From positions 563,354 to 627,353 of the forward strand of contig NZ_CP047901.1 in NCBI RefSeq assembly GCF_009936135.1: a DNA stretch of 64,000 nucleotides, read 5' to 3'. Origin of the DNA: Candidatus Chazhemtobacterium aquaticus (GTDB lineage Bacteria > Patescibacteriota > Microgenomatia > UBA1400 > Chazhemtobacteraceae). Shown piece after piece: positions 8,243 to 61,831 of this stretch. A model generated the notes under the pieces. The model worked only from the letters and a program-made list of their open reading frames with translations. It did not search any database and was not told the DNA's origin. The position numbers and the translations under genes are program-made. Positions within the stretch are counted from its first letter, which is position 1; every line of letters starts with the position of its first letter.

Positions 8243-9689
8243 TCATCAACCAGGTTAATCGTCCTCGTCTTGCCTAATAGTTCAAGAGTAGTTTCTACCT
8301 CTCGTATCCCCGGTTGCTTAAGAATCCCTAGCCTAATATCCTTACCCTCATCCTCTAGCTCATACACCACTCTTACCCAACTGTTTGTTCCTGCTCTAGT
8401 GGTGTTAAACAAACCAATCTCGCTAAATCCATATACCTGTTGGATATCTAGCTCCTCGCTTTTCCCGCTGTATGGTTGTGGCCACAGACCCAGATCTCCA
8501 GTTATCGTCGGCAGTGCCGATACCTGAATGTTTTCTGCCTTCTCAGGAATGTAGAAACGCAAATAGCTTAAGTAATTACCTCCATAAAACTTTGGCTTCA
8601 CTGCAAACTCCTGAGGCGCCTGATTAGATATCTCTACTTCAATTAAATGAACCAATCTTCCATTCGCTGCTACCAGTCTTTGCTTCATTACTCTGCTCAC
8701 ACAACAATTAGCCTTATTTACTCCCAAATTCATCTCAATCACTCCCACGTTAATAGTCTGATGTATTTCATCACTCACTACCAACGGGGCATACTCACCA
8801 GACCAGCCCAGTTCATGGATGGTGTTCTGCGCCGATTCATCTGTAGAGTTAACAACAATATTCTTGTTCTCCAGATCCTCAAAGATTATTTTAGCTACCT
8901 TAAACTTGTCCATGAAGCTTAAATTCTCAAGTTTTTGCATTAACTTCTTTCCTGTCGCCGTTAGAGCGTCTCTTTTTTGGGTTGATCCGGGGAAAAAGTT
9001 CACTTCAGTGTTATCCTCCAACCACTTGTAGAAGTTGTCTTGGTTTAAAGTCTCACCATACTCAGCTATCTCTATCTCACCAATCACGCCCATAATTTTC
9101 TCCATCGTCGAGATATTAAGCGTGATTAGCACATCAGGTACTACCTCCTTCCCTTTATCAAAAAACCATCTAATTGCCGTTGCACTTTTAGGAAAATCAG
9201 GACTCCAGTCAGCATTAGGCAATCGATGACTCCCAGTCTTAAAAGCACGCTGTAACGGCTCTGGTGGGGCAATATACCCCTCTATCTGCCCATCCGGAAC
9301 ATAAATATCCTCAAACCTGACTTCATACCCTCCGCTTTTTACACTTACCACTGCATAAGAGCCCATAAATCCGCCAAAGGTTCTCAGCTCTCTGTCATTA
9401 AGCAGTAACACCGTGTACACCGTCTCTTCGTTTTTCCCTAACCAATACTCACTATCCTCGAGCAATGGTTCAATTTTTTTAAATATAGCTACTGGTTCTC
9501 TTACCTGCTTAAGCGGAACAACTCTACTCAGGGTCTCTAGTTTGCTAATAACCTCAGGAGCGATGTTAATACAGCTCTCAACATCTCCTCCTCGACAGGC
9601 CGCAGTTTCTCTTGCCAATCCGACTACCGACCAAGTTAGTATTAGTAACAAAACAAACAGTCCTAGTAAGATACCTTTAACCCATTTCA
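8218..9689 (-). CDS. Membrane-anchored extracytoplasmic protein, DUF4012-like (putative)
   Basis: The ORF track starts at 9735, but the signal-anchor MKWVKGILLGLFVLLLILTWSVVGLA begins at the second Met (about 9689). The large hydrophilic body contains LLLNDRELRTFGGFMGSYAVV, which resembles DUF4012 proteins of cell-wall polysaccharide loci. The family assignment is from memory. Confidence 0.45.
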
Positions 9690-12712: not shown

Positions 12713-12784
12713 GCGGGATTAGTTCAACGGTAGAACATTTGCTTCCCAAGCAAAAAACACGGGTTCAATTCCCGTATCCCGCTC
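12713..12784 (+). tRNA. tRNA-Gly(CCC)
   Basis: Manual cloverleaf: acceptor GCGGGAT/ATCCCGC, D-arm GTTCAACGGTAGAAC, anticodon stem TTGC/GCAA with loop TTCCCAA (anticodon CCC), T-arm GGGTTCAATTCCC. Confidence 0.85.
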
Positions 12785-14399: not shown

Positions 14400-14580
14400 T
14401 GCAAATCAAACCTTATCTAGGTGAAGCAGGGTGCAATTCCCTCACTGTCGCGCAACGGTAATAGTCCGAGCCCTATCTAAGGATTTTTGTATACGTAGCT
14501 AAGCTCGCGGAAAGCTAACCAGTTGCTGAAAACAGTAATTGTTTTTTAACAAGTCCCGCTTAGAGGGACTTTTTTTTGTA
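14400..14580 (+). promoter_or_regulatory. Candidate cobalamin (B12) riboswitch-like leader with intrinsic terminator
   Basis: GGTGAAGCAGGGTGCAATTCCCTCACTGTCGCGCAACGGTAATAG matches conserved cobalamin-riboswitch core strings (GnGAA; GGUGnAAnUCC; CnGnCGCGCnnCGGUAA). Compare the E. coli btuB leader AGUGCGAAUCUGGAGCUGACGCGCAGCGGUAAGG. A partial B12-box-like AGTCCGAGCCC (14467-14477) follows. The element ends in a terminator hairpin and lies 30 nt before a DUF4430 gene. Confidence 0.45.
14551..14577 (+). terminator. Rho-independent terminator / attenuator hairpin
   Basis: AAGTCCCGCTTAGAGGGACTT is a perfect 7-8 bp stem with a GCTTAGA loop, followed by TTTTTTT. It sits 33 nt upstream of the ATG at 14611. 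Confidence 0.7.
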
Positions 14581-14610
14581 TATCTCCCGTCTTAGTCTGC
14601 GTTACCCACT

Positions 14611-15258
14611 ATGCAGACTCAACTAAAAAAAATTCTACCCTTACTTATAGTCCTTACCGGACTTACTCTCACTGGCGCCTTTACCTACGGACTGTCTCTT
14701 GTCTTACCTCCACTTGAATCAAACCCTGTTAAATCTATATCGTTAACCGAAACCGATCCAACACCTACACCAGCTCCCCAAGACTCCAAACTTGATCCTG
14801 ACTCAATCACCATTACTCCTACACCTACTCCTACCACTCTCTCTGCTAACGATACCAAGCCCACTTCTCAAATCACTCCAGCATCAACACCCATCCCAAC
14901 AAACCCTCCCACACCTACTCCTACTACCCCACCCACCACTACTCCAGCTCCGACCCCCCGACTTAAGCTCACCCTCCAGATTGATAACGATCCACCCTTC
15001 AATCTTGAACTCGATTCACCCAAAAATCACTGCCAGGTTTTAGAAGCCGCTTTAGCTCAAGGTAAATTAAGCTCTCTTAACCTTAAGTTTTTCCCCTCCC
15101 TCTCCTCCTACGCTGTTTATCAAATCAACGGTCTAGGAGACACCAACCAAGTCTGGTGGACCTACTCAGTTAACGGTCAACAACCACCCTATGGTTGTAG
15201 CCAAGTCATGGTCAATCAAGGCGATGTTATTCACTGGACCTACGCCGGTCCCCGTTAA
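14611..15258 (+). CDS. Secreted/anchored DUF4430 protein (transcobalamin/intrinsic-factor beta-domain-like) with a Pro/Thr-rich linker
   Basis: N-terminal signal/anchor (LPLLIVLTGLTLTGAF) and a PT-rich linker. The C-terminal about 100 aa (LKLTLQIDNDPPF...VLEAAL...AVYQINGLGD...VWWTYSVNGQQPPYGCSQVMVNQGDVIHWTY) fits the DUF4430 pattern (..Ing..W.Y.VNG...G.....GD.i.W.Y). Confidence 0.6.
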   Translation: MQTQLKKILPLLIVLTGLTLTGAFTYGLSLVLPPLESNPVKSISLTETDPTPTPAPQDSKLDPDSITITPTPTPTTLSANDTKPTSQITPASTPIPTNPPTPTPTTPPTTTPAPTPRLKLTLQIDNDPPFNLELDSPKNHCQVLEAALAQGKLSSLNLKFFPSLSSYAVYQINGLGDTNQVWWTYSVNGQQPPYGCSQVMVNQGDVIHWTYAGPR

Positions 15259-15264
15259 ACTTAT

Positions 15265-16575
15265 ATGAAACATCTCAAATCATTCATTATTATCTCAATC
15301 ACCCTATTTATCTCCCTTAGGGTAGGCTCATCCGTGTTCGCCAACACTACTGCCATCTCCGAGGCTCTAACATATCTTCAAAGCCAACAAGCAAGCACTG
15401 GTCAGATCAACGGTAGGGGAGGGGAGTCTGACTGGGCCGCTATCGCCTTTTCTCAAAACGGCCTTCCTGCCTCTTCTGTCAAATCAGGTGACACCTCTTT
15501 ATATGACTTCCTTCTCTCAGACCTACCTGCATCTGACTCAGCTGCCACCGTCTGGGAACGCAAAATCATTACCATTGTCTCTCTTAACCAAGACCCCACC
15601 GATTTTGCTGGACACAACTACCTAAGCTCCCTTGAGTCGCTTGCTCTAAATGGGCAACTAGGTGATGAGACTCTTCTAAACGATGACATTTTTGGGTTAC
15701 TTGCTCTTCTCTCTGCCTCATCGACCAACAATGAGTTGATTGAGTCGGTTCTTGATTTCCTCATTACTCACCAAGACCCCAGTGGTGGTTTTAGTTGGAC
15801 CACTAACACCTGCGACCGGTGTTCTCCTGACAGCAATGACACCGCAGCCGCTATCCAAGCCCTCCATCTGGCCAAAACATCAGGTTTTACCCATCCCCAA
15901 CTTGAAGACAGTCTCTCTCAAGCCCAAACATATTTACTAGAGTCACAAACAGAATCTGGCGGTTTTGCCTACGACCCCAATACGCCTACTCCCGATGGTG
16001 CCTCTACCTCCTGGGCTCTCATGGCATTAAATATGCTTGGTCTCTCTGACTCTTCTCAGGCTTTAAAGGCTACAGATTGGTTACTCTCACAACAACAAGC
16101 CGACGGTAGTTTCCCCTGGTCAGCTGAGTATGGCAGCGACCCCACTACAACCAGTCATGCCCTGATTGCTCTAAACTCGGCCTGGTGGACCAAGCAGTCT
16201 CCCGATCCTTCTCAAACACCTACTCCTACTTTGACACCAACACCAACTCCTACTCCCACCTCTACCACTACCCCAGAGCCTACAGCTACTCCTACGCCTA
16301 CTCCTACTCAAACACCTACATTAACACCCTCACCCACAACTACTCCACAACCCCTGCTTCTAGGCTCAAAAGACTCTAGAGCCCCTCTACCCACTCCATC
16401 ACCCGATCAACAGCCAGAAGATACATCCAATCAACCCCTTGTCACTAATGATACTAACGGGCTAAAATCTCCATCAGTATCTACCTCTATTTCATATATC
16501 CCCACCCTAGCTGTTATATTAGGCATCATTACTCTATTCGCTGTCATTAAAATTTACGAACGCAAAAAAACATGA
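15265..16575 (+). CDS. Surface-anchored prenyltransferase/squalene-cyclase-repeat (alpha/alpha-toroid) protein
   Basis: Signal peptide present. Repeated QW-type motifs (HQDPSGGFSW, ESQTESGGFAY, QQQADGSFPW; TAAAIQAL, TSWALMAL, TSHALIAL). A TPTPTPT linker leads to a C-terminal TM anchor (LAVILGIITLFAVIKIYERKKT). Confidence 0.6.
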   Translation: MKHLKSFIIISITLFISLRVGSSVFANTTAISEALTYLQSQQASTGQINGRGGESDWAAIAFSQNGLPASSVKSGDTSLYDFLLSDLPASDSAATVWERKIITIVSLNQDPTDFAGHNYLSSLESLALNGQLGDETLLNDDIFGLLALLSASSTNNELIESVLDFLITHQDPSGGFSWTTNTCDRCSPDSNDTAAAIQALHLAKTSGFTHPQLEDSLSQAQTYLLESQTESGGFAYDPNTPTPDGASTSWALMALNMLGLSDSSQALKATDWLLSQQQADGSFPWSAEYGSDPTTTSHALIALNSAWWTKQSPDPSQTPTPTLTPTPTPTPTSTTTPEPTATPTPTPTQTPTLTPSPTTTPQPLLLGSKDSRAPLPTPSPDQQPEDTSNQPLVTNDTNGLKSPSVSTSISYIPTLAVILGIITLFAVIKIYERKKT

Positions 16576-17147
16576 TTAACACCACCATTATCCTAGGCGG
16601 AATTATTTTAAGACTTGTTCCACACCTACCCAATTTCTCCTCCATCAGCGCTACTGCACTGTTTGCCGGTACCAAGCTACCTCGCCGTTACGCTTTTATC
16701 TTGCCTTTAGTCATAGCCGTCGTCTCTGACTATCTTCTCCTTTACGTTAATCCTTTCGCAATTCCCATCCTTGACTTGTCTGGCATCAAACCCATTTCAG
16801 CCATGTTTCATGCCACCACCCTTTATGTCTGGGGTAGCTTCTTACTTTCAGGCTTAATTGGTCTGTGGTTACGTCGCCACTTTAAAGCCAGTAACTTGGT
16901 TTTAGCCTCTCTGATTACCTCCCTTCAGTTCTTTCTGATTACCAACTTCGGTGTCTGGGCTGCCGGAGCATATAGTCGAGGAATTGATGGTCTTGTAACC
17001 AGTTACGCCATGGGTCTACCTTTCCTGCGTTGGACTATGTTAGGTGATCTTTTCTACAGTTCAGTTTTCTTCTCTATTCACGCCTTTGCTACTAGAACAA
17101 GCACCAAGGTTAGTCCAGCTACTCTAAAAGCTCGTGTCCAAAACTAG
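16572..17147 (+). CDS. Small polytopic membrane protein, ECF-transporter S-component-like (BioY-like N-terminal motif)
   Basis: 191 aa with 5-6 TM helices. LPNFSSISATALFAGTKLPRR parallels the BioY signature PVPITLQTLAVMLAGLILGPR. It is translationally coupled to the preceding gene by a 4-nt overlap. Confidence 0.35.
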   Translation: MINTTIILGGIILRLVPHLPNFSSISATALFAGTKLPRRYAFILPLVIAVVSDYLLLYVNPFAIPILDLSGIKPISAMFHATTLYVWGSFLLSGLIGLWLRRHFKASNLVLASLITSLQFFLITNFGVWAAGAYSRGIDGLVTSYAMGLPFLRWTMLGDLFYSSVFFSIHAFATRTSTKVSPATLKARVQN

Positions 17148-17844
17148 TTCCACTAAATTACTCACCCAGCTTGAATCAGTTGAGGGCTGGCTTCGTGACG
17201 ATGAGGCTATATTACTCAACCAACTAGCTGCTCAAGCCACTCCTGTCACCATCATTGTCGAGATTGGTTCCTGGAAGGGTAAATCAACCATCGCTCTTGC
17301 TCTATCTGCCAAGGTTCCAGTCTACGCCATCGATCCTCATACCGGCTCTCCTGAACACCATCAAAAAGGTAAATCTGTTGATACCTACAAGGACTTTTTA
17401 AACAACATCGAAAGCCATAACCTGACCAAAAAGGTTAAGCCTTTACGTCTCACCTCCAAAGAAGCTGCCAAGAAGATCAACAAGCCTATCAGTCTGCTCT
17501 TCATCGACGGCGATCACTCTTACCAAGCAGTTAGCCAAGACTTTAAAGATTACTACCCCAAGCTTCAACTGGGTGGCACCATCGCCTTTCATGACACCAT
17601 CAGCTGGCCCGGGCCTCGCAAACTTGTTACTCAACAGTTGTATTTTGGCAATCACTTTAAAAATATCCGTCTAGTTGGCTCCATTACCTACGCTCAAAAA
17701 ACCTTGTCTCTCACTATTATTGACAGACTTAAAAACTTATCCGCCTATATTCTCCGCTTACTACGAAATCTGATAGCCACCATTCCCATGCCCAGGTCCA
17801 TAAAGACTGTTCTCAAAGATATCTTCCAACGTCTTCAAGCTTAA
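17134..17844 (+). CDS. Class I SAM-dependent methyltransferase (Methyltransf_24/O-MTase-like)
   Basis: VEIGSWKGKSTIALA (motif I) and LLFIDGDHSYQAVSQDFKDY...GGTIAFHD are typical of CmcI/Methyltransf_24-type SAM methyltransferases. Confidence 0.55.
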   Translation: MSKTSSTKLLTQLESVEGWLRDDEAILLNQLAAQATPVTIIVEIGSWKGKSTIALALSAKVPVYAIDPHTGSPEHHQKGKSVDTYKDFLNNIESHNLTKKVKPLRLTSKEAAKKINKPISLLFIDGDHSYQAVSQDFKDYYPKLQLGGTIAFHDTISWPGPRKLVTQQLYFGNHFKNIRLVGSITYAQKTLSLTIIDRLKNLSAYILRLLRNLIATIPMPRSIKTVLKDIFQRLQA

Positions 17845-18512: not shown

Positions 18513-19295
18513 ATGAGAATCTCAACATATAAAGACAGTTTGATTTTTGGACTAACTCAGGTAACAAACTATCGCAGCGAAGTTTGGCTTATGGTTTTAA
18601 ACAAAGCCATATATTTAGGGGGCATTATTTTTCTCTGGTCATTAATAGGCAAGTCCGCCTCAGTGGGTGTCAATTCGCTTGTTTCATATTTTTTAATCGC
18701 CAATGGCGTCCAAGGCCTTGTTGACGCGGAATCGCTTCGATTTACCAGAACTTTAAATGAGGAAATTAAGACTGGAACCTTAAGTGCTCATTTACTTCGT
18801 CCAATCAATCCAGTCATTTTCTTATACACCTCATTTCTTGGAACTCGTGGCGTGATAATTTTAATGGCTATCCTCTTAGCCGTTACAGGCTTTTTGTTCC
18901 TTCCATCATTCTCGATTATTCAATTTATCCTTTTTTTAATCAGTGTTTTTCTCGCTTTCATAATCAGTTTTATTTTCAACCTTTTGGTAGGCAGTTTAAC
19001 TTTTTGGAGTCCAGAGGCCAATCACCTTCAAAACGTAGCCTCTCACTTTATTCGTGTCTTTGGTGGAGTTCTTATTCCCATCACTTTCTTCTCCGATAAG
19101 ATTAAACAAATTCTATTACTCACTCCGCTTCCTGCCATCGCTTATCTTCCCTCGATCATCATGCAAACACACAGTCTCAATAAAGATATTCTAACCTCGT
19201 TTTTAAGTACTATTTTTTGGATCGGAATCCTATTACCATTTAGTTTTTTTGTCTGGCGATCAGGTTTGAAACGCTATGAAGCAGTCGGTATTTGA
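18513..19295 (+). CDS. ABC-2 type transporter permease (DUF990/ABC2_membrane_6-like)
   Basis: Six predicted TM helices. It is operonic with a second permease and an ABC ATPase. Confidence 0.55.
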   Translation: MRISTYKDSLIFGLTQVTNYRSEVWLMVLNKAIYLGGIIFLWSLIGKSASVGVNSLVSYFLIANGVQGLVDAESLRFTRTLNEEIKTGTLSAHLLRPINPVIFLYTSFLGTRGVIILMAILLAVTGFLFLPSFSIIQFILFLISVFLAFIISFIFNLLVGSLTFWSPEANHLQNVASHFIRVFGGVLIPITFFSDKIKQILLLTPLPAIAYLPSIIMQTHSLNKDILTSFLSTIFWIGILLPFSFFVWRSGLKRYEAVGI

Positions 19296-20103
19296 ACCAA
19301 TCAAAATAAGGCTCGAGATTCTCAAAGCCAACACTCTCTTCTCACTTAAAGAATCACTCGCCTACAGCCTAAACAACTGGGGAGGTTTGGCATCAACCAT
19401 CACCTATATGTTGACCTATCTTGTTTTTCTCTCAGCGCTATACGGACGGGTTGAAACAATCGGTGGGTATCGTTACTCGGAAGCCCTTCTTTTCACTTTA
19501 ATGGTTCAGCTAAATTTCTATCTCATCTGGGTCTGGAGCATGACTAACCTAGAAAAACTAGGTTATGACATCAAGACCGGAAAACTTGACCTAATTTTAA
19601 GCAAGCCACTTCCTTCACTTTGGTACGTCACCTTTCAAAAAATTAATTTATTTACCCTAATAGTAGAAATGTGGCCAGCGACTCTTCCCTTGCTTTATCT
19701 TCTATTCAAACATCTTGATTTTTCAGTCACTCCACTCGGACTTTTTTACGGTGCCCTGACTCTATTTCTTGGTCAAATCGCCACTCACTGCTTCCAATTT
19801 CTTTTCACGCTTTTGACTTTTTGGACAGGCGAATCAAAAGGCTTGACCGGAATTTCATACCAAATTGCTTTTTTTGGTAGCGACGCCATTCCGCTCGAAG
19901 CCTTTCCCAAATCAGTTATCTTCCTCGGTATAACCGCGATTCCATTTCTTACCCACACCGCCCTCACTACTTCATATATACTTGGAAGAACCACCAGTCC
20001 CTTTTATCTCATCCTCGCCCTAGCCTCCACAACCATATTTCTATTTATTAAAATCAAGGCCTGGAATTTTGCCCTAAAACATTACGCTTCAGCCTCGTCC
20101 TAA
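19276..20103 (+). CDS. ABC-2 type transporter permease
   Basis: Polytopic membrane protein. It overlaps the previous permease by 20 nt and is followed 2 nt later by the ATPase. Confidence 0.55.
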   Translation: MKQSVFEPIKIRLEILKANTLFSLKESLAYSLNNWGGLASTITYMLTYLVFLSALYGRVETIGGYRYSEALLFTLMVQLNFYLIWVWSMTNLEKLGYDIKTGKLDLILSKPLPSLWYVTFQKINLFTLIVEMWPATLPLLYLLFKHLDFSVTPLGLFYGALTLFLGQIATHCFQFLFTLLTFWTGESKGLTGISYQIAFFGSDAIPLEAFPKSVIFLGITAIPFLTHTALTTSYILGRTTSPFYLILALASTTIFLFIKIKAWNFALKHYASASS

Positions 20104-20104
20104 T

Positions 20105-21073
20105 ATGAAAGACATAATCAGCGCTAACAAACTAACAAAAACCTATCAAATCCCAATTAAACAAGGGGTACTTAAAAGTATCTTTTTCTCTAATAACCGA
20201 GAGTTAATTGCCGTAGATAAAATTGATTTTAAAGTCAAACAAGGCGAGTCAGTCGCCCTGCTTGGACCAAATGGGGCAGGCAAAACGACTACTCTAAAAA
20301 TGCTTACTGGCCTTTTGTATCCAACCTCCGGAGAGATAGAAGTCTTAGGGTTCACTCCCACCGACAGAAAAAGAGAGTTCCTTCGTCAAATCGCCTTGGT
20401 GATGGGTAACAAAAGTGGTCTCTCTTGGGATCTTTCTGCCATGCAAAGTTTCAATCTCTTCAAAACCATTTATCAAATTCCAGAAAACATCCTCAAGAAC
20501 CGTCTTGACGAAATGACAGAACTGCTCGACATCAAAGACCAATTAGACACACCCATTCGTAAACTTTCCCTAGGTCAACGTCTTAAAATGGAGTTAGTTG
20601 GTGCTATTCTTCATCGACCAAAACTACTCTTTCTGGATGAACCCACTATTGGATTAGACGTCGTCTCGAAACGAAAAATAAGAGGTTTTCTTCGCTATCT
20701 CCATAAAGAAGAACAAACCACCATACTCCTCACGAGTCACGAGATGGCCGACATTGAAAGTGTCTGCGATCGTACCATCATCATCAACCACGGTCAAATC
20801 GTTTTTGACGATACATTAGAAAAACTTTCTCACTATTATCAAGACAAGAAATATCTAACCGTCACTTTCAAGAAACCAGTTAAAGAAGAAAAACTTCAAC
20901 AACTGGGCAATGTTATCTCCAGCAGAGAACTCTCCCATACTTTAGAAATCTCTAAATCAACTCAAAGCACAGTCATCGCTAAACTAGCTGAAAAGTTCCC
21001 CGTAGATGATATAGACATTCAAGGGGTTCCGCTAGACGAGATAATTGAAGACCTGTTTACACAAACAAAATAA
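20105..21073 (+). CDS. ABC transporter ATP-binding protein
   Basis: Walker A LLGPNGAGKTTTLKML, ABC signature LSLGQRLKMEL, Walker B LLFLDEPTIGLDV and an H-loop (TSHEM). Confidence 0.9.
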   Translation: MKDIISANKLTKTYQIPIKQGVLKSIFFSNNRELIAVDKIDFKVKQGESVALLGPNGAGKTTTLKMLTGLLYPTSGEIEVLGFTPTDRKREFLRQIALVMGNKSGLSWDLSAMQSFNLFKTIYQIPENILKNRLDEMTELLDIKDQLDTPIRKLSLGQRLKMELVGAILHRPKLLFLDEPTIGLDVVSKRKIRGFLRYLHKEEQTTILLTSHEMADIESVCDRTIIINHGQIVFDDTLEKLSHYYQDKKYLTVTFKKPVKEEKLQQLGNVISSRELSHTLEISKSTQSTVIAKLAEKFPVDDIDIQGVPLDEIIEDLFTQTK

Positions 21074-21086
21074 ATTGAAACTGTAG

Positions 21087-21169
21087 TGCCGAGGAGAGGA
21101 CTTGAACCTCCACGAGCTTGCGCTCACAGCGTCCTGAACGCTGCGTGTCTGCCATTCCACCACCTCGGC
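21087..21169 (-). tRNA. tRNA-Leu(CAG)
   Basis: Reverse complement is GCCGAGGTGGTGGAATGGCAGACACGCAGCGTTCAGGACGCTGTGAGCGCAAGCTCGTGGAGGTTCAAGTCCTCTCCTCGGCA. It has a long variable arm and anticodon loop TTCAGGA. Confidence 0.85.
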
Positions 21170-21206
21170 ATCAGGCATATTTTACCACTCAAAAAACTAT
21201 ATTGAT

Positions 21207-21863
21207 TTACTCCAACTCACTCATAAACTGGTTCACTCCAAAAGCCCAGGATCCATCAGATGGGGGAGTATATGTCCCCATTACTTCCTCAGCCTCGGTT
21301 CTGGATCCCTTGCTTAAGAACTTCTCCTTAAACTGGGGGGCAATCCTCTCTATCGCTTGCTCATATGACTCAAACCGGGTTATCTTCATTTCCCGACACT
21401 CATTTGCCTCACTATCATAATCCAAACACCATATGCCCCAACCCCAGCAGTTATATGAATCATCAGGAATCCGCTTACACAAATTCGACTCTTGCTGAGC
21501 AATAGCTACCAGCCATCTAAAATCAAAACCATTTTCATCTGATACCTTTACGATCAAATCAGCGTGTGGTTCAAGCGGGGATTCGTGTTTTGCAAGATAC
21601 TGCCGCAAAATCTCTGCTCTGGCATCAGCGGTTCCGATTGAGGTAATAAACTTGTTTTCAGGTGCTGGAATAGCTGCGTACATTAACTCAGGCACTCCAG
21701 TCGGTTGAATCTCGCTCACTAAAGGCGAAGCTAAGGGTACCGGCTTATCCATTTTTACATACATAAAAACAGAAGCCATTAACAAAGCTCCCGAGACACC
21801 GCTCCACACAGGTAGCAACCACAATTTCTTAAACATATCGTACGTCTCTACCCATACTCGCAA
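21207..21863 (-). CDS. Membrane-anchored lysozyme-like peptidoglycan hydrolase (SLT/GH23- or GH73-like)
   Basis: N-terminal TM anchor. FDFRWLVAIAQQESNL...NCWGWGIW resembles lytic-transglycosylase/glucosaminidase catalytic motifs (A.A.QES...G.G). The family assignment is approximate. Confidence 0.4.
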   Translation of the reverse strand: MRVWVETYDMFKKLWLLPVWSGVSGALLMASVFMYVKMDKPVPLASPLVSEIQPTGVPELMYAAIPAPENKFITSIGTADARAEILRQYLAKHESPLEPHADLIVKVSDENGFDFRWLVAIAQQESNLCKRIPDDSYNCWGWGIWCLDYDSEANECREMKITRFESYEQAIERIAPQFKEKFLSKGSRTEAEEVMGTYTPPSDGSWAFGVNQFMSELE

Positions 21864-21886
21864 GATTTAAGCTCATTGTCAACTTG

Positions 21887-21961
21887 CGCGCCTGGAGGGA
21901 CTCGAACCCCCATAAAACCCTGTTCCGAAGACAGGTGCCTTATCCATTAGGCCACAGGCGC
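21887..21961 (-). tRNA. tRNA-Arg(TCG)
   Basis: Reverse complement is GCGCCTGTGGCCTAATGGATAAGGCACCTGTCTTCGGAACAGGG...GGGGGTTCGAGTCCCTCCAGGCGC. Anticodon loop CTTCGGA. Confidence 0.8.
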
Positions 21962-22335
21962 ATATTTTAATTTCCAACTGTTATTCTCATGAGCTGTCTT
22001 TCTTCTATGGCAATTCGCACACCGGACCTCACACTTTCCAATCTCAGTCGAAATTGTTTTTAAAGACAAGCCTCCCTTTACCATATCACTAAGCGTGCAA
22101 CGCTTGTGCTTTCTATCTTTATGATCAAACTCTAAAACAGTTATATCCTTCTCACCACAATCAACACAAGGATGCGTTGATAAATATGTACCAACATACT
22201 GACGCGCCTCTTCTCTTACAACTACGTTTCTTCTTCGTGCTTTTTCAAGATAATATTTTCGATTCTCAACGTAATGCTGCCTTACATACTCTCTTGAACA
22301 CGCGGTGCAATATGTTGCACGAGTTTTATTTCTTC
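21962..22335 (-). pseudogene. 5'-truncated paralog of the HNH zinc-finger endonuclease gene at 24285..24734
   Basis: The minus-strand frame reads ...TRATYCTACSREYVRQHYVENRKYY...HPCVDCGEKDITVLEFDHKDRK...EIGKCEVRCANCHRRKTAHEN. This parallels the intact paralog (CKTCLRERGKSYYRKNRER...CKDCGQ...MDFDHRDE...CDIVCANCHRIRTY) but has no start codon and lacks the first ~30 codons. An IS200-family left end abuts it, and its 3' end runs into tRNA-Arg. Confidence 0.45.
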
Positions 22336-22339
22336 CTTA

Positions 22340-22920
22340 CAGGAAACCCCGCATGGAATAGCGTCACACGAGAGTAGTTAGCGTATGGAATGCGGGGATG
22401 AATGAGCATATCAGGCTGACCTGATATGCTGACTGCATGAGAAAGAGAAGCCTTAATCACTGTGCCTATCAACACCAGTACCATCTAGTCTGGGGAACAA
22501 AATACAGACGGAAATACATCAAGTCGTATGTCAAGGAAGAGTTGCTGTTAGAGTTACACCAACTGATCAAGAAATATCCCACACTGTATCTTTACGCTGT
22601 CAACACGGGTAGTGATCACATTCATCTACAAATTGAGATTTCACCAGATATATCAGTAGCCAGGGTGGTTCAAAGGATTAAGACATATACCAGCTTTCGA
22701 TTAAAGAAAAAATTTAAGTTCATCAGGAAGATATATCTGGACTCTGGTATCTGGAGTGTGGGATATTTCTCATCAACAGTGGGTTTAAACGAGACTTACC
22801 TTCCAGTTAAACTCGGATACATTTTTTCTTTTCTGACAGCGCGGACATGTCTTAAACACAACTGTTTTAATTATATCAATGTACACTTCGAAAATTAAAT
22901 ATGATTTCGAAGTATAGAAA
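22340..22920 (+). mobile_element. IS200/IS605-family insertion sequence (tnpA only) with subterminal hairpins
   Basis: The tnpA ORF is flanked by imperfect palindromes typical of the family. Left end: CCCCGCAT...ATGCGGGG (22347-22397) and AGCATATCAGG-ctga-CCTGATATGCT (22405-22430). Right end: ACTTCGAAA-11nt-TTTCGAAGT (22885-22913). Confidence 0.6.
22437..22898 (+). CDS. tnpA: IS200-like Y1 (HUH) transposase TnpA
   Basis: YHLVWGTKYRRKYI and the HuH motif SDHIHLQIEI. Catalytic Tyr region SVGYFSSTVG. At 153 aa it has the right size for IS200 TnpA. Confidence 0.85.
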   Translation: MRKRSLNHCAYQHQYHLVWGTKYRRKYIKSYVKEELLLELHQLIKKYPTLYLYAVNTGSDHIHLQIEISPDISVARVVQRIKTYTSFRLKKKFKFIRKIYLDSGIWSVGYFSSTVGLNETYLPVKLGYIFSFLTARTCLKHNCFNYINVHFEN

Positions 22921-22944
22921 CTAAACTCAGATAACGCATTCGTG

Positions 22945-23016
22945 TGCGCCCAGGAGGACTCGAACCTCCAACCAATTGCTTAAGAGGCAACTGCTCTGCC
23001 ATTGAGCTATGGGCGC
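22945..23016 (-). tRNA. tRNA-Lys(CTT)
   Basis: Reverse complement is GCGCCCATAGCTCAATGGCAGAGCAGTTGCCTCTTAAGCAATTGGTTGGAGGTTCGAGTCCTCCTGGGCGCA. Anticodon loop CTCTTAA. Confidence 0.85.
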
Positions 23017-23055
23017 ATAACCCATATTATATCAACCCTATATATAAAAGTAGGG

Positions 23056-23130
23056 GGTGGCTGACGAGAATTGAACCCGCGACCTCCGCTTCCACAGAGC
23101 GGCGCTCTAACCGACTGAGCTACAGCCACC
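23056..23130 (-). tRNA. tRNA-His(GTG) with encoded G-1
   Basis: Reverse complement is G-GTGGCTGTAGCTCAGTCGGTTAGAGCGCCGCTCTGTGGAAGCGGAGGTCGCGGGTTCAATTCTCGTCAGCCAC-C. Anticodon loop CTGTGGA. The extra 5' G pairs with discriminator C. Confidence 0.8.
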
Positions 23131-23164
23131 ACGTTTTCAACCATTTTACTTGAGTTTGGTTGAG

Positions 23165-23238
23165 CGCGCCCAGCAGGATTCGAACCTGCGACCTACTGCT
23201 TAGAAGGCAGTTGCTCTATCCGGCTGAGCTATGGGCGC
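23165..23238 (-). tRNA. tRNA-Arg(TCT)
   Basis: Reverse complement is GCGCCCATAGCTCAGCCGGATAGAGCAACTGCCTTCTAAGCAGTAGGTCGCAGGTTCGAATCCTGCTGGGCGCG. Anticodon loop CTTCTAA. Confidence 0.85.
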
Positions 23239-23239
23239 A

Positions 23240-23313
23240 TGGAGCGGGAGAGGGGGATCGAACCCCCGTCTTCTGCTTGGAAGGCAGATGCTCTACCATT
23301 GAGCTACTCCCGC
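23240..23313 (-). tRNA. tRNA-Gly(TCC), CCA encoded
   Basis: Reverse complement is GCGGGAGTAGCTCAATGGTAGAGCATCTGCCTTCCAAGCAGAAGACGGGGGTTCGATCCCCCTCTCCCGCTCCA. Anticodon loop CTTCCAA. Confidence 0.85.
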
Positions 23314-23327
23314 ATAATATGTTCCAG

Positions 23328-23400
23328 TCGGGGTGCCCGGTCTCGAACCGGGGACCTCTGCGTCCCAAACGCAGCACTCTACCATCTGAGCTACACCCCG
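23328..23400 (-). tRNA. tRNA-Pro(TGG)
   Basis: Reverse complement is CGGGGTGTAGCTCAGATGGTAGAGTGCTGCGTTTGGGACGCAGAGGTCCCCGGTTCGAGACCGGGCACCCCGA. Anticodon loop TTTGGGA. Confidence 0.85.
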
Positions 23401-23411
23401 TTGTCAATTAG

Positions 23412-23497
23412 TGCCGAGGGCGGGAATCGAACCCGCACGAGGGTTGAACCTCAAGGGATTTTAAGTCCCTCGCGTCTGCCTATTCCGCCACCTCGGC
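23412..23497 (-). tRNA. tRNA-Leu(TAA)
   Basis: Reverse complement is GCCGAGGTGGCGGAATAGGCAGACGCGAGGGACTTAAAATCCCTTGAGGTTCAACCCTCGTGCGGGTTCGATTCCCGCCCTCGGCA. It has a long variable arm and anticodon loop CTTAAAA. Confidence 0.85.
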
Positions 23498-23535
23498 GCC
23501 AGGCTTAATTTTACCACTTATCACCCGATTTGACC

Positions 23536-23766
23536 TTAAGGCAATACGTTTCTCAAAAAATAGAAGATTCCATCCACTATCGTTCTAAAGATGGGTACTG
23601 AGGCTGGAACAAAGATAATCAATAGTAAAATCCAGATAAAATTACGCTTAATCAAATCTACTAACATCAATACAATTCCCACGAAAATAAGCAAGGCGAT
23701 CAAACCTTGTAACTCCATCGGAAAAAGGGATATAAAATCCTGCCACAACATCATTATCTGATCCAT
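23536..23766 (-). CDS. Small two-helix membrane protein (hypothetical)
   Basis: A 76-aa ORF lying between the two opposed tRNA blocks, with two clear hydrophobic helices. Confidence 0.35.
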   Translation of the reverse strand: MDQIMMLWQDFISLFPMELQGLIALLIFVGIVLMLVDLIKRNFIWILLLIIFVPASVPIFRTIVDGIFYFLRNVLP

Positions 23767-23838
23767 AACGCCATTTTAACATCTCAAAAACCCAAGCCTA
23801 GCTCATCACCCTCGGTCTTGGTATAATATCAGCTGTTA

Positions 23839-23922
23839 GGGCAGGTGGCGGAACTGGCAGACGCGCAGCCTTGAGGAGGCTGTGGGCTTATGCCCGTGGA
23901 GGTTCAAGTCCTCTCCTGCCCA
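23839..23922 (+). tRNA. tRNA-Leu(GAG)
   Basis: GGGCAGGTGGCGGAACTGGCAGACGCGCAGCCTTGAGGAGGCTGTGGGCTTATGCCCGTGGAGGTTCAAGTCCTCTCCTGCCCA. It has a long variable arm and anticodon loop TTGAGGA. Confidence 0.85.
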
Positions 23923-23965
23923 CACAAAAGCCGCGTCATCACGCGGCCTCTTTGTAAAAACACCT

Positions 23966-24051
23966 GCCGAGGTGGCGGAATGGCAGACGCGCTGGATTTA
24001 GGATCCAGTGGGTGTAAACCCGTGGAGGTTCAAGTCCTCTCCTCGGCACCA
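23966..24051 (+). tRNA. tRNA-Leu(TAG), CCA encoded
   Basis: GCCGAGGTGGCGGAATGGCAGACGCGCTGGATTTAGGATCCAGTGGGTGTAAACCCGTGGAGGTTCAAGTCCTCTCCTCGGCACCA. Anticodon loop TTTAGGA. Confidence 0.85.
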
Positions 24052-24059
24052 ACAACCAA

Positions 24060-24133
24060 GGACGGTTGGCGCAGTTGGTTAGCGCGTCTCTTTTACACAG
24101 AGAAGGCCGGGGGTTCGAATCCCTCACCGTCCA
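24060..24133 (+). tRNA. tRNA-Val(TAC)
   Basis: GGACGGTTGGCGCAGTTGGTTAGCGCGTCTCTTTTACACAGAGAAGGCCGGGGGTTCGAATCCCTCACCGTCCA. Anticodon loop TTTACAC. Confidence 0.85.
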
Positions 24134-24166
24134 CCGGAAGATAAAGATGATAAAATAATTACACTT

Positions 24167-24239
24167 GCCAAGCTAGCCAAGGTGGTCACGGCGCGTGTCT
24201 GAAAAACACGAGATTGAGGTTCGACTCCTCAGCTTGGCA
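24167..24239 (+). tRNA. tRNA-Phe(GAA)
   Basis: GCCAAGCTAGCCAAGGTGGTCACGGCGCGTGTCTGAAAAACACGAGATTGAGGTTCGACTCCTCAGCTTGGCA. Anticodon loop CTGAAAA. The D-arm is atypical, with a short stem. Confidence 0.7.
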
Positions 24240-24284
24240 CAAAATACTTGAACTAGTCGCAACCCAAGGGATAACATAATTGTA

Positions 24285-24734
24285 ATGAAGACATGCTCCA
24301 GATGTCACCTTAGTAAGGATTTATCCGAATTCTATTTACGCAAAACCGGCAGGAAAGCAGGGCAATATTACAACCACTGTAAAACGTGTCTCAGAGAGAG
24401 GGGAAAATCTTATTACAGGAAAAACAGAGAGAGGCAGCTCTTCCTATCAAACCAAAGAAGAAAAAAATACGTAATTCTCAAAAAGAAGCTAGTATATAGT
24501 CTCAAAAACAAGCCGTGTAAAGATTGTGGCCAAAGATTTCCTCACTACGTTATGGACTTCGACCATCGCGATGAGACAACCAAGATCGGAAATATCGCCC
24601 ACTTAGTCAGCCAAAACTACTACTCAAAAACAAAACTACTTGCAGAAATCAACAAATGTGACATCGTCTGCGCTAATTGCCATCGCATAAGAACCTACAA
24701 ACACAAAATACGCACCATAAACAAAGTTTATTGA
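24285..24734 (+). CDS. HNH endonuclease with N-terminal zinc-ribbon (homing-endonuclease-like)
   Basis: CSRCH...CKTC Cys pairs at the N-terminus. The HNH core CKDCGQRFPHYVMDFDHRDE...NIAHLVS...EINKCDIVCANCH provides the His-Asn-His triad and Zn-binding Cys residues. Confidence 0.7.
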   Translation: MKTCSRCHLSKDLSEFYLRKTGRKAGQYYNHCKTCLRERGKSYYRKNRERQLFLSNQRRKKYVILKKKLVYSLKNKPCKDCGQRFPHYVMDFDHRDETTKIGNIAHLVSQNYYSKTKLLAEINKCDIVCANCHRIRTYKHKIRTINKVY

Positions 24735-24750
24735 TATAATAATAGAACCT

Positions 24751-24826
<76 letters not shown>

Positions 24827-24832
24827 CACATT

Positions 24833-25705
24833 ATGACGGAACTTTTTGACCAGTACGACTATACTCACCAACGCATTCAAAACAGTCTGGTGTTAGCCTA
24901 TCTCAAGGAAGGGTCAGTAAATGCTATTCTCCCTCAGTTTCCTGAGGTGCCTGAACAAACTGCCCACAACTGGCTTGATGCCTACGACATAGTTAAACTC
25001 CAGGGTCGCAAACCCAATCCATTAGGTTCTGTCCTATACTTCCTGTCTCAATGGGTAGCCGCCAAAGATATTCCTCTAGAACGTTGGTACCGCGAATACA
25101 CGCCTCATCGTATTCGAGAAGTTCTCTCCACACCTAGTCTCCATCGAGTTGTTGATCACATTCGCCGGCTTACCACCAGGCTTTCCGCTACTGCCCTCAT
25201 TATCACTCCTCAAGACGCTCCAGAGCATATCTTAGTTGGTCATGACATTACCACCCCCAATCCTCAAGTAGGTAAAACCTTCGGCTCATTATCTCTACCC
25301 ATGACCTATTCCAATACCGGTGAGCCGCCCCAACTCTCAATTAAACGAGTTCTTCAGCAAGAGGTTTTTTCCAATCTTGTTTTAAGCAAAGACTTTCCAG
25401 ACTGGCTTATACCCGATGAGCTACAACCCTTCATGCACGTAGCCGTCGCTGACGTTGATGTGGCTGCATATCACCTTCAGATCCCCTGGGAGCTTACTGA
25501 TAGTTTTAGTAGTCCCAAGCTTGATGGACTTAAACTTACTCCGCTAGACCAACTTCTTAAGCACCATCCGCTGGATACCTCTATACGATCAGGTGTAGTT
25601 GAGATAGCCAGCGGACATTCATCCTATATCAACCAACCTCAAACAGAACCCATCACCTGGGCTCTATCACGCTTAAACGAAGAAATACTGCTCGCTCGCC
25701 TCTAA
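24833..25705 (+). CDS. Hypothetical protein (orphan). The ORF-track start at 24782 was trimmed because it overlaps tRNA-Gly.
   Basis: The ORF is open from MTELFDQYDY... No recognisable motif. Its composition resembles the other GC-richer orphans in the window. Confidence 0.45.
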   Translation: MTELFDQYDYTHQRIQNSLVLAYLKEGSVNAILPQFPEVPEQTAHNWLDAYDIVKLQGRKPNPLGSVLYFLSQWVAAKDIPLERWYREYTPHRIREVLSTPSLHRVVDHIRRLTTRLSATALIITPQDAPEHILVGHDITTPNPQVGKTFGSLSLPMTYSNTGEPPQLSIKRVLQQEVFSNLVLSKDFPDWLIPDELQPFMHVAVADVDVAAYHLQIPWELTDSFSSPKLDGLKLTPLDQLLKHHPLDTSIRSGVVEIASGHSSYINQPQTEPITWALSRLNEEILLARL

Positions 25706-25735
25706 GAGCCTCAAAATGTTAAAATATCCCAATCT

Positions 25736-25809
25736 TGCCGGATCGTCTAATGGTAGGACACCACCCTTTGAAGGTGGTTATCTAGGTTCGAACCCTAGTC
25801 CGGCAACCA
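25736..25809 (+). tRNA. tRNA-Gln(TTG), CCA encoded
   Basis: TGCCGGATCGTCTAATGGTAGGACACCACCCTTTGAAGGTGGTTATCTAGGTTCGAACCCTAGTCCGGCAACCA. Anticodon loop CTTTGAA. Confidence 0.8.
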
Positions 25810-61668: not shown

Positions 61669-61740
61669 TGACCCCACGGGGAATCGAACCCCGATTACCA
61701 GGATGAAAACCTGGCGTCCTAGCCGTTAGACGATGGGGCC
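61669..61740 (-). tRNA. tRNA-Glu(TTC)
   Basis: Reverse complement is GGCCCCATCGTCTAACGGCTAGGACGCCAGGTTTTCATCCTGGTAATCGGGGTTCGATTCCCCGTGGGGTCA. Anticodon loop TTTTCAT. Confidence 0.8.
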
Positions 61741-61756
61741 TCGGAAGTAAAAAGAG

Positions 61757-61831
61757 TGGGTCCACTGGGATTCGAACCCAGGACACCCTGCTTAAAAGGC
61801 AGGTGCTCTAACCAGGCTGAGCTATGGACCC
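61757..61831 (-). tRNA. tRNA-Lys(TTT)
   Basis: Reverse complement is GGGTCCATAGCTCAGCCTGGTTAGAGCACCTGCCTTTTAAGCAGGGTGTCCTGGGTTCGAATCCCAGTGGACCCA. Anticodon loop CTTTTAA. Confidence 0.85.

Follow-up and report, generated by a model that had tools for sequence, protein, structure and literature searches.

A candidate corrinoid uptake operon of Patescibacteria with two tethered transcobalamin-like proteins and a DUF6580 membrane partner

The general idea that bacteria scavenge vitamin B12 with transcobalamin-like proteins was already known. Burroughs et al. (2007, Biol Direct 2:4; PMC1796856) described bacterial surface proteins with transcobalamin-like SLBB domains and predicted that they scavenged B12 or its precursors for hosts that had no B12 synthesis. 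A split pair of such proteins was also known from an energy-coupling factor (ECF) operon of Lactobacillus sakei. Here, we analysed a stretch of 64,000 nucleotides (nt) from Candidatus Chazhemtobacterium aquaticus (NZ_CP047901.1), called the window below, to which all coordinates refer. Three closely packed genes on the + strand, encoding the proteins P1, P2 and P3, were located 3' of a riboswitch leader. With a probability of about 0.7, we considered this operon to be a cobalamin-repressed corrinoid capture and import system of a Patescibacteria-type bacterium. Its parts were as follows.

14410-14483, + strand: aptamer of an adenosylcobalamin (AdoCbl)-II cobalamin riboswitch, RF01689 (Rfam covariance model)
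14484-14610, + strand: expression platform with a small hairpin, two terminator-like hairpins with T-runs, and an untranslated spacer to the ATG (terminator scan, RNA fold)
14611-15258, + strand: P1, 215 amino acids, in which a Pro/Thr-rich linker joins an N-terminal membrane anchor or signal to a DUF4430 domain (Pfam PF14478)
15265-16575, + strand: P2, 436 amino acids, an alpha/alpha toroid between a signal peptide and a Pro/Thr-rich linker, ending in a C-terminal transmembrane anchor (Pfam, AlphaFold)
16572-17147, + strand: P3, 191 amino acids, a DUF6580 membrane protein with a predicted ECF S-component/BtuM-like fold, candidate corrinoid translocator (Pfam, structure comparison)

The P1 stop codon (15256-15258) and the P2 start codon (ATG at 15265) were separated by a gap of 6 nt. 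A first-pass annotation, made from the sequence of this DNA, had described a start/stop overlap between these two genes; the overlap (ATGA, 16572-16575) in fact belonged to P2 and P3.

Like the systems of Burroughs et al., the present locus encoded exported or surface-bound beta-domain homologues that were fused to, or encoded beside, an alpha/alpha toroid, although in their systems the toroid stood on either side (PMC1796856). Some of the earlier operons also had a second paralogous SLBB gene (PMC1796856), and the same was found in four of the related loci described below (L003, L004, L008, L037). However, their operons carried genes for a CbiO-like ATPase and a CbiQ-like membrane protein (PMC1796856), whereas the operon studied here had DUF6580 and no ATPase or T-component nearby. 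Moreover, PMC1796856 described neither an AdoCbl-II riboswitch as the control element nor a DUF4430-DUF6580 core, both of which were found here, and our hosts were Patescibacteria. According to the accessible part of its source, the lsa1836-1840 operon of L. sakei (bioRxiv 10.1101/864751) encoded split, exported beta (Lsa1839) and then alpha (Lsa1840) proteins, and an S-component-like membrane protein beside the pair, all as in the window. It differed from our operon in having a fused EcfA/A' (Lsa1837) and an EcfT (Lsa1838), neither of which was encoded adjacently here, and its S-component, unlike P3, resembled the S-components of L. brevis by HHpred. The L. sakei experiments pointed to heme, and the same part of that source did not mention a riboswitch.

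The vertebrate carriers transcobalamin, intrinsic factor and haptocorrin (2BB5, 2BB6, 4KKI) had a beta-domain homologous to P1 and an alpha-domain of the same fold class as P2. They consisted of one soluble chain with the alpha-domain first, whereas the window encoded two membrane-tethered chains with the beta-domain first, which was also the order in fused bacterial homologues. Two known transporters provided a comparison for P3. BtuM of Thiobacillus denitrificans (PDB 8ovv) was a solitary S-component-like B12 transporter in which the invariant Cys80 ligated cobalt and was essential (PMC6072759). It had the six-helix S-component-like fold in common with the P3 model and no detectable sequence similarity to P3. 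BtuM came from Gram-negative proteobacteria that also had BtuB, and P3 from Patescibacteria in which the binders were tethered and transcobalamin-like. ECF-CbrT of Lactobacillus delbrueckii contained an S-component for cobalamin and cobinamide, and its gene was part of the cluster nrdJ-cbrS-cbrT-pduO (PMC5997447, accessible part). Similarly, DUF6580 was directly followed by pduO, the gene for a PduO-type cobalamin adenosyltransferase, in 10 related loci. CbrT worked with an EcfAA'T module, its source, as far as accessible, mentioned no transcobalamin-like partners, and P3 had no sequence match to it.

In comparison to all of these, the window operon was different in its membrane partner. This belonged to a family without an assigned function, had a predicted BtuM-like fold, was free of cysteine and had no ECF module beside it. 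It was also different in its DUF4430-DUF6580 core with an optional toroid, controlled by an AdoCbl-II riboswitch and widely distributed in Patescibacteria. Patescibacteria, also called the Candidate Phyla Radiation, form a very large group of mostly uncultured bacteria with minimal biosynthesis. To our knowledge, the way in which they acquire cofactors has been largely unknown, and a literature search for Patescibacteria together with cobalamin or riboswitches returned no published B12 uptake route. The operon type described here offered a concrete and testable one.

The comparison drew on the window, on four contexts of P2 homologues and on 80 species-representative loci that were found with an alignment of DUF6580, 85 sources in all. 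The DUF4430, toroid and DUF6580 parts were mapped onto these loci with purpose-built hidden Markov models, and aptamers were counted with a custom covariance model built from three aptamer matches. The named relatives of the window proteins were Patescibacteria (for example Daviesbacteria, Levyibacteriota and Saccharibacteria), and the gene order was conserved across Patescibacteria classes. The window itself had a match in a contig of 165 kb from the assembly of run SRR6186653, and the operon was also present in complete genomes such as OZ246414.1 and OY969116.1. The loci fell into the following classes.

DUF4430, toroid and DUF6580 as separate genes: 17 loci, with an aptamer just upstream on the same strand in 17
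DUF4430-toroid fusion with DUF6580: 3 loci (L003, L008, L037), with an aptamer just upstream on the same strand in 3
Toroid-less pairs in which DUF6580 came directly after DUF4430: 23 loci, with an aptamer just upstream on the same strand in 14; some of the aptamer-less two-gene loci ended at a contig edge
DUF6580 with neither DUF4430 nor a toroid (for the most part in Bryobacterales, other Acidobacteriota and Bacteroidales): 33 loci, with an aptamer just upstream on the same strand in 1

Thus, DUF4430 and DUF6580 formed the conserved core of these operons and the toroid was an optional add-on.

The cobalamin riboswitch that the first-pass annotation had seen in the leader was recovered by the Rfam search. 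RF01689 matched 14410-14483 on the + strand at 41.3 bits (gathering threshold 36.5; E = 1.9e-6 over all 64 kb and 1.2e-8 in a local search), and this was the only non-tRNA Rfam match in the window. Two related loci, L001 and L002, also had RF01689 matches above gathering, and the custom model gave 37 same-strand matches in the related loci. More than 30 divergent loci had the aptamer ahead of these genes. In an alignment of 41 matches, 87.9% of the cells were paired as compared to 59% in shuffles, and 14 of the 17 pairs showed compensatory changes on both sides. The covariation score was 0.577 against 0.145 in shuffles (0 of 500 reached it) and at most 0.132 in slid controls, in an alignment that was fitted to the covariance model and therefore somewhat favoured structure. 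The window aptamer, taken by itself, left some room for doubt, since its score exceeded the gathering threshold by just ~5 bits and three positions of one helix were deleted in the RF01689 alignment. One could argue on these grounds that the match arose by chance and that the three genes were unrelated neighbours. We gave this explanation practically no credence: the recurrence of the aptamer, its covariation and the counts in the locus classes ruled it out, and the gene order was kept across classes and fusions of the genes existed.

The expression platform contained a small hairpin near 14505-14517 and two terminator-like hairpins (14520-14541 and 14551-14571) followed by T-runs. The second T-run ended at 14577, about 33 nt 5' of the ATG at 14611, in agreement with the terminator that had been placed about 30 nt before the first gene. 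A hairpin with a T-run separated the aptamer from the start codon in 24 of the 33 homologous leaders. Many of these leaders had a terminator with a Shine-Dalgarno-like 3' arm (GGAGG or GAAGG) that stood right before the ATG, and judging from these motifs, termination and masking of the ribosome site may be combined there. In the window leader, termination was the more likely mode because the terminator hairpin was 40 nt away from the P1 ATG. The string AGUCC was read twice, at 14463-14467 in the aptamer and at 14552-14556 in the 5' arm of the terminator, a repeat that could permit competing pairings. An inspection of the aligned aptamer loops and the platform hairpins for an L5-L13 kissing-loop partner gave no convincing covarying complement. 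In one relative with the same operon and a 90% identical P2, the leader was 98% identical. We infer that the leader would work as an OFF switch: once cobalamin is sufficient, it would bind the AdoCbl-II aptamer, the terminator hairpin would be favoured, and the operon would be turned off.

The start codon of P1 was itself located within a predicted hairpin (14597-14622, GUCUGCGU...AUGCAGAC), with no obvious Shine-Dalgarno sequence ahead of it.

P1 consisted of a hydrophobic N-terminus, a Pro/Thr-rich linker of ~70 residues (approximately residues 45-117) and a DUF4430 domain (approximately residues 113-215). The assignment to DUF4430 agreed with the first-pass call and was well above the Pfam cut-off (PF14478, 43.7 bits against 23.8). 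DUF4430 has been described as the C-terminal domain of TCN proteins (PMC4350170). When P1 was used as a single sequence to search the PDB, only its linker was matched. A DUF4430 profile (A5) was then built from 29 domains of the related loci, and it identified haptocorrin (4kki, 2.8e-8), the isolated transcobalamin beta-domain (5no0, 1.2e-6) and transcobalamin (2bb6, 9.1e-6; 2bb5, 2.5e-5). Apart from these carriers, which included bovine, human and rat transcobalamin, the only significant PDB match of this profile was 3u7z, a bacterial DUF4430 structure. The alignments spanned the whole domain (profile positions 6-96 of 99). Thus, the P1 domain was homologous to the SLBB-type beta-domain of transcobalamin and haptocorrin over its full length.

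P2 matched PF13243 (SQHop_cyclase_C, 39.2 bits), PF00432 (Prenyltrans, 36.7) and PF13249 (SQHop_cyclase_N, 27.6), all above the cut-offs. An AlphaFold model, which used an alignment of 92 sequences, showed a confident toroid at residues 30-310 (about 27-312; predicted local distance difference test score ~97), a disordered Pro/Thr linker and a C-terminal helix at 414-435. These results bore out the description of P2 in the first-pass annotation as a toroid protein with such a linker and a C-terminal transmembrane anchor. With its N-terminal signal and its C-terminal helix, P2 was predicted to be an externally tethered toroid. A Foldseek search with the model gave significant matches to transcobalamin at ranks 27, 35, 40 and 42, with E-values from 2.7e-5 to 5.4e-5 (2v3n at rank 27 and 2.7e-5; also 8ixu and 7qbg). 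P2 thus belonged to the fold class of the transcobalamin alpha-domain and had no specific affinity to it. The first-pass annotation had named the Rfam, Pfam and structural comparisons as those on which its proposal could fail; they returned a cobalamin riboswitch, DUF4430 and prenyltransferase-like families, and transcobalamin among the significant matches of P2.

Three observations connected the toroid to the beta-domain homologue. Single-chain DUF4430-toroid proteins existed among the homologues (P0061, P0065, P0090, P0093 and P0109), with DUF4430 first, as in the gene order of the window. At E <= 0.1, 10 of the 92 members of the P2 family reached the Cobalamin_bind model PF01122, and one of them, P0085, passed its cut-off (28.3 against 25). 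Finally, a DUF4430 subtype with a conserved cysteine pair was present in 16 of 17 cases with a separate toroid gene and in 0 of 23 domains from loci without a toroid. Taken together, the fusions, the relatives reaching PF01122 and the co-occurrence of the cysteine pair argued that P2 was functionally linked to P1.

We also considered whether P2 was a real terpene cyclase and rejected this possibility given the absence of the DxDD motif, the export signal and the external tether. P2 had no DxDD, and this motif was present anywhere in just 11 of the 92 family members. Export and external tethering would also fit an isoprenoid enzyme poorly, and it was unlikely that P2 was an enzyme at all. The motifs that were conserved in the P2 family were NDDxFG and DxN/D-D-TAAA. 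Since they resembled degenerate terpene-cyclase motifs, they hinted that the family may have descended from a cyclase-like ancestor. A CxxC-like pair (TCDRCS, residues 183 and 186) was located in a loop of the toroid, and these positions were cysteine in 40 and 21 of the 92 relatives, respectively.

P3 matched the Pfam family PF20221 (DUF6580) at 146.4 bits against a cut-off of 27, over residues 4-176. It carried an invariant histidine, His18, in the motif RLxPHxPNF. Its model had a six-helix S-component-like fold, and the best structural neighbour was the B12 transporter BtuM. A Foldseek search with the P3 model gave non-significant matches only. The first-pass annotation had proposed an ECF S-component. 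This held with respect to the modelled fold, by which P3 was S-component-like, and not with respect to sequence or an adjacent ECF module. DUF6580 was a large family (5,392 clusters at 50% identity, E <= 1e-3), and our literature search on it found no publication. The present analysis assigned a probable function to this Pfam family with thousands of members.

Genes for cobalamin metabolism and transport accompanied DUF6580 in several phyla. In addition to the PduO-type genes directly 3' of it, a gene for a CobA/BtuR-type adenosyltransferase was found just upstream of the module in L002. In 3 of 15 further loci, from Acidobacteriota (L080, L081) and Omnitrophota (L050), Rfam identified an RF00174 riboswitch near DUF6580 on the same strand. 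In two loci, a lone BtuF-like gene (Peripla_BP_2, 101 bits) was located directly after DUF6580 and overlapped it (L007, 6555-7487; L021, 6540-7469). It was followed by a phosphoglucosamine-mutase-like gene in L007 and by a diphthamide-synthase-like gene in L021. Since no BtuC or BtuD genes came after it in either locus, the gene arrangement suggested that this binding protein may serve DUF6580 rather than a classical ABC (ATP-binding cassette) importer.

The conserved aptamer, the homology of DUF4430 to transcobalamin, the fusions, BtuM as the fold neighbour of P3 and the neighbouring adenosyltransferase genes supported the earlier suggestion of a two-gene surface system for corrinoid scavenging. 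We propose the following mechanism. The long Pro/Thr linkers would tether P1 and P2 at the outer face of the cell membrane. The beta-domain homologue P1 and the toroid P2 would probably pair and clamp a corrinoid between them in a transcobalamin-like manner, as two polypeptides in the reverse order. The corrinoid would then be handed to the six-helix P3 for transport across the membrane, a step that may need no dedicated ATPase module as its source of energy. The locus may be regarded as a bacterial two-chain counterpart of transcobalamin, in which the clamping of B12 and its hand-over to a membrane carrier can be studied.

A number of results spoke against this proposal and had to be weighed. 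With regard to P2, its sequence profile found terpene cyclases and prenyltransferases as the closest PDB entries, with no transcobalamin among the best 60 matches listed. Class II terpene cyclases were likewise on top of its Foldseek results (E ~4e-7), where prenyltransferases also ranked above transcobalamin, and P2 itself did not match PF01122 at E <= 0.1. Additionally, the toroid was absent in about half of the related operons (the 23 loci without it). With regard to P3, no PDB sequence match to BtuM, CbrT or any solved S-component was obtained at E <= 10, either by phmmer or with the DUF6580 profile. P3 had no cysteine at all, unlike BtuM with its essential Cys80; the DUF6580 alignment A2 had no conserved cysteine column, and 36 of 84 DUF6580 open reading frames (ORFs) were entirely without cysteine. 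Moreover, no B12-dependent enzyme and no adenosyltransferase were seen among the window ORFs scanned. Ten large window ORFs and the genes 3' of DUF6580 elsewhere were searched for enzymes dependent on B12 and for ECF modules, and gave housekeeping genes only.

The results on P2 would be explained if uptake required P1 and P3 only and P2 was an accessory surface protein, such as a scaffold, a spacer or cell-wall module, or a binder of something else. Such a role would also agree with the direct succession of DUF4430 and DUF6580 as the conserved core. On the other hand, covalent DUF4430-toroid fusions had appeared in several lineages and had the same riboswitch in L003, L008 and L037, and all 17 three-gene loci had the aptamer. 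The subtype of DUF4430 with the cysteine pair followed the separate toroid, some family members reached the Cobalamin_bind model, and in transcobalamin the toroid itself clamps B12 together with the beta-domain (PMC1796856). Accordingly, we considered a merely accessory P2 to be clearly unlikely.

It was also conceivable that the same architecture carried heme or another tetrapyrrole, as has been claimed for lsa1836-1840. In the accessible part of that report, deletion and complementation of the L. sakei operon, with its beta-like and alpha-like proteins and its ECF genes, altered heme accumulation (bioRxiv 10.1101/864751), which was a further point against a corrinoid cargo. However, the operon described here was controlled by a cobalamin riboswitch that was conserved across lineages, genes for PduO- and BtuR-type cobalamin adenosyltransferases adjoined the module in relatives, and the closest fold to P3 was that of a cobalamin transporter. 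A heme cargo was therefore very improbable, and we retained corrinoid uptake by P1, P2 and P3 as the preferred explanation.

One variant of this explanation differed from it only in energy coupling. In this variant, P3 would be an ordinary group-II S-component that required EcfA, EcfA' and EcfT encoded elsewhere in the genome, and not a solitary transporter like BtuM. Group-II ECF modules are usually encoded away from the gene of the S-component, and no ECF-type genes were present among the window ORFs scanned. A scan for Walker A and LSGGQ motifs in the 85 loci, which covered ~950 kb in total, found no candidate ABC ATPase adjoining the module. Near the window operon, the sole ABC system was of the ABC-2 type, the top structural match of P3 was the solitary BtuM, and in L007 and L021 the lone BtuF-like protein after DUF6580 came without a permease or ATPase gene. 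We regarded a distant ECF module as somewhat doubtful.

In a second and more novel variant, which we put forward tentatively and with the odds against it as a whole, DUF6580 would represent a new class of solitary, cysteine-independent and ECF-ATPase-free corrinoid transporter that was fed by tethered binders and served as the main B12 route of Patescibacteria. The feeders of DUF6580 would then be DUF4430 alone, DUF4430 with a toroid, or a lone BtuF-like protein. If DUF6580 did function without an ATPase, with tethered binders supplying the cargo, a binding-protein-assisted S-component would be added to the modes of S-component-type transport known so far. For Patescibacteria with reduced genomes, this would be the main route to B12 from their hosts or surroundings. 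The supply of B12 may also serve as a lever for the cultivation of Patescibacteria.

Several loci contained further genes or signals of possible relevance. Proteins without a significant Pfam match were encoded in L016 (2367-3968, 533 amino acids), L066 (1215-2828, 537 amino acids) and L043 (7253-8548, ~420-430 amino acids), and they either had a cobalamin-riboswitch-like aptamer of their own ahead of them or were located inside a B12 operon. Between 6 and 9 loci had a member of the family of 420-430 amino acids, in most cases right behind pduO, with relatives in L038, L042, L044, L045 and L047. From their genomic positions, the proteins of L016, L066 and L043 were candidates for further B12-related surface or uptake proteins. 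In L010 (4685-6579), the toroid signal extended over two overlapping ORFs, the second of which (474 amino acids) also held the DUF6580 match; this may be a natural fusion of toroid and DUF6580, or else a frameshift or an assembly error. The L004 locus had no DUF6580 gene and no aptamer match. It contained a LOOT RNA (RF03000, 73 bits; 9288-9410, + strand) about 2 kb 3' of a gene pair that encoded a DUF4430 protein and a fused DUF4430-toroid protein.

Downstream of the window operon was a gene for a methyltransferase of the Methyltransf_24 family (17134-17844, + strand, 236 amino acids, 73 bits). If it did start at its GTG, it shared 14 nt with the end of P3 and may be co-transcribed with the operon. 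L086, a close relative, had kept this gene, but the remaining 84 sources did not have it, and it was therefore probably a passenger. The ABC-2 type transporter was encoded just 3' of the operon (18513-21073, + strand) by three genes, two for ABC2_membrane_6 permeases and one for an ABC ATPase. It was not ECF-type, it was syntenic in L086, and a HIT-family gene on the opposite strand separated it from the operon. Of the 17 tRNA genes in the window, 14 were clustered on both strands within 21.0-25.8 kb (21087-25806), while one was found at 12713-12783 and two near 61.7 kb (61669-61831).

Eleven of the sources (L005, L006, L007, L020, L021, L027, L037, L040, L043, L045 and L066) were metagenome-assembled genome records labelled 'uncultured Gammaproteobacteria bacterium'. 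Their operons and proteins shared 40-60% identity with the Patescibacteria ones, and one of these records was a 'chromosome' of 915 kb. The Gammaproteobacteria labels on these records were probably wrong.

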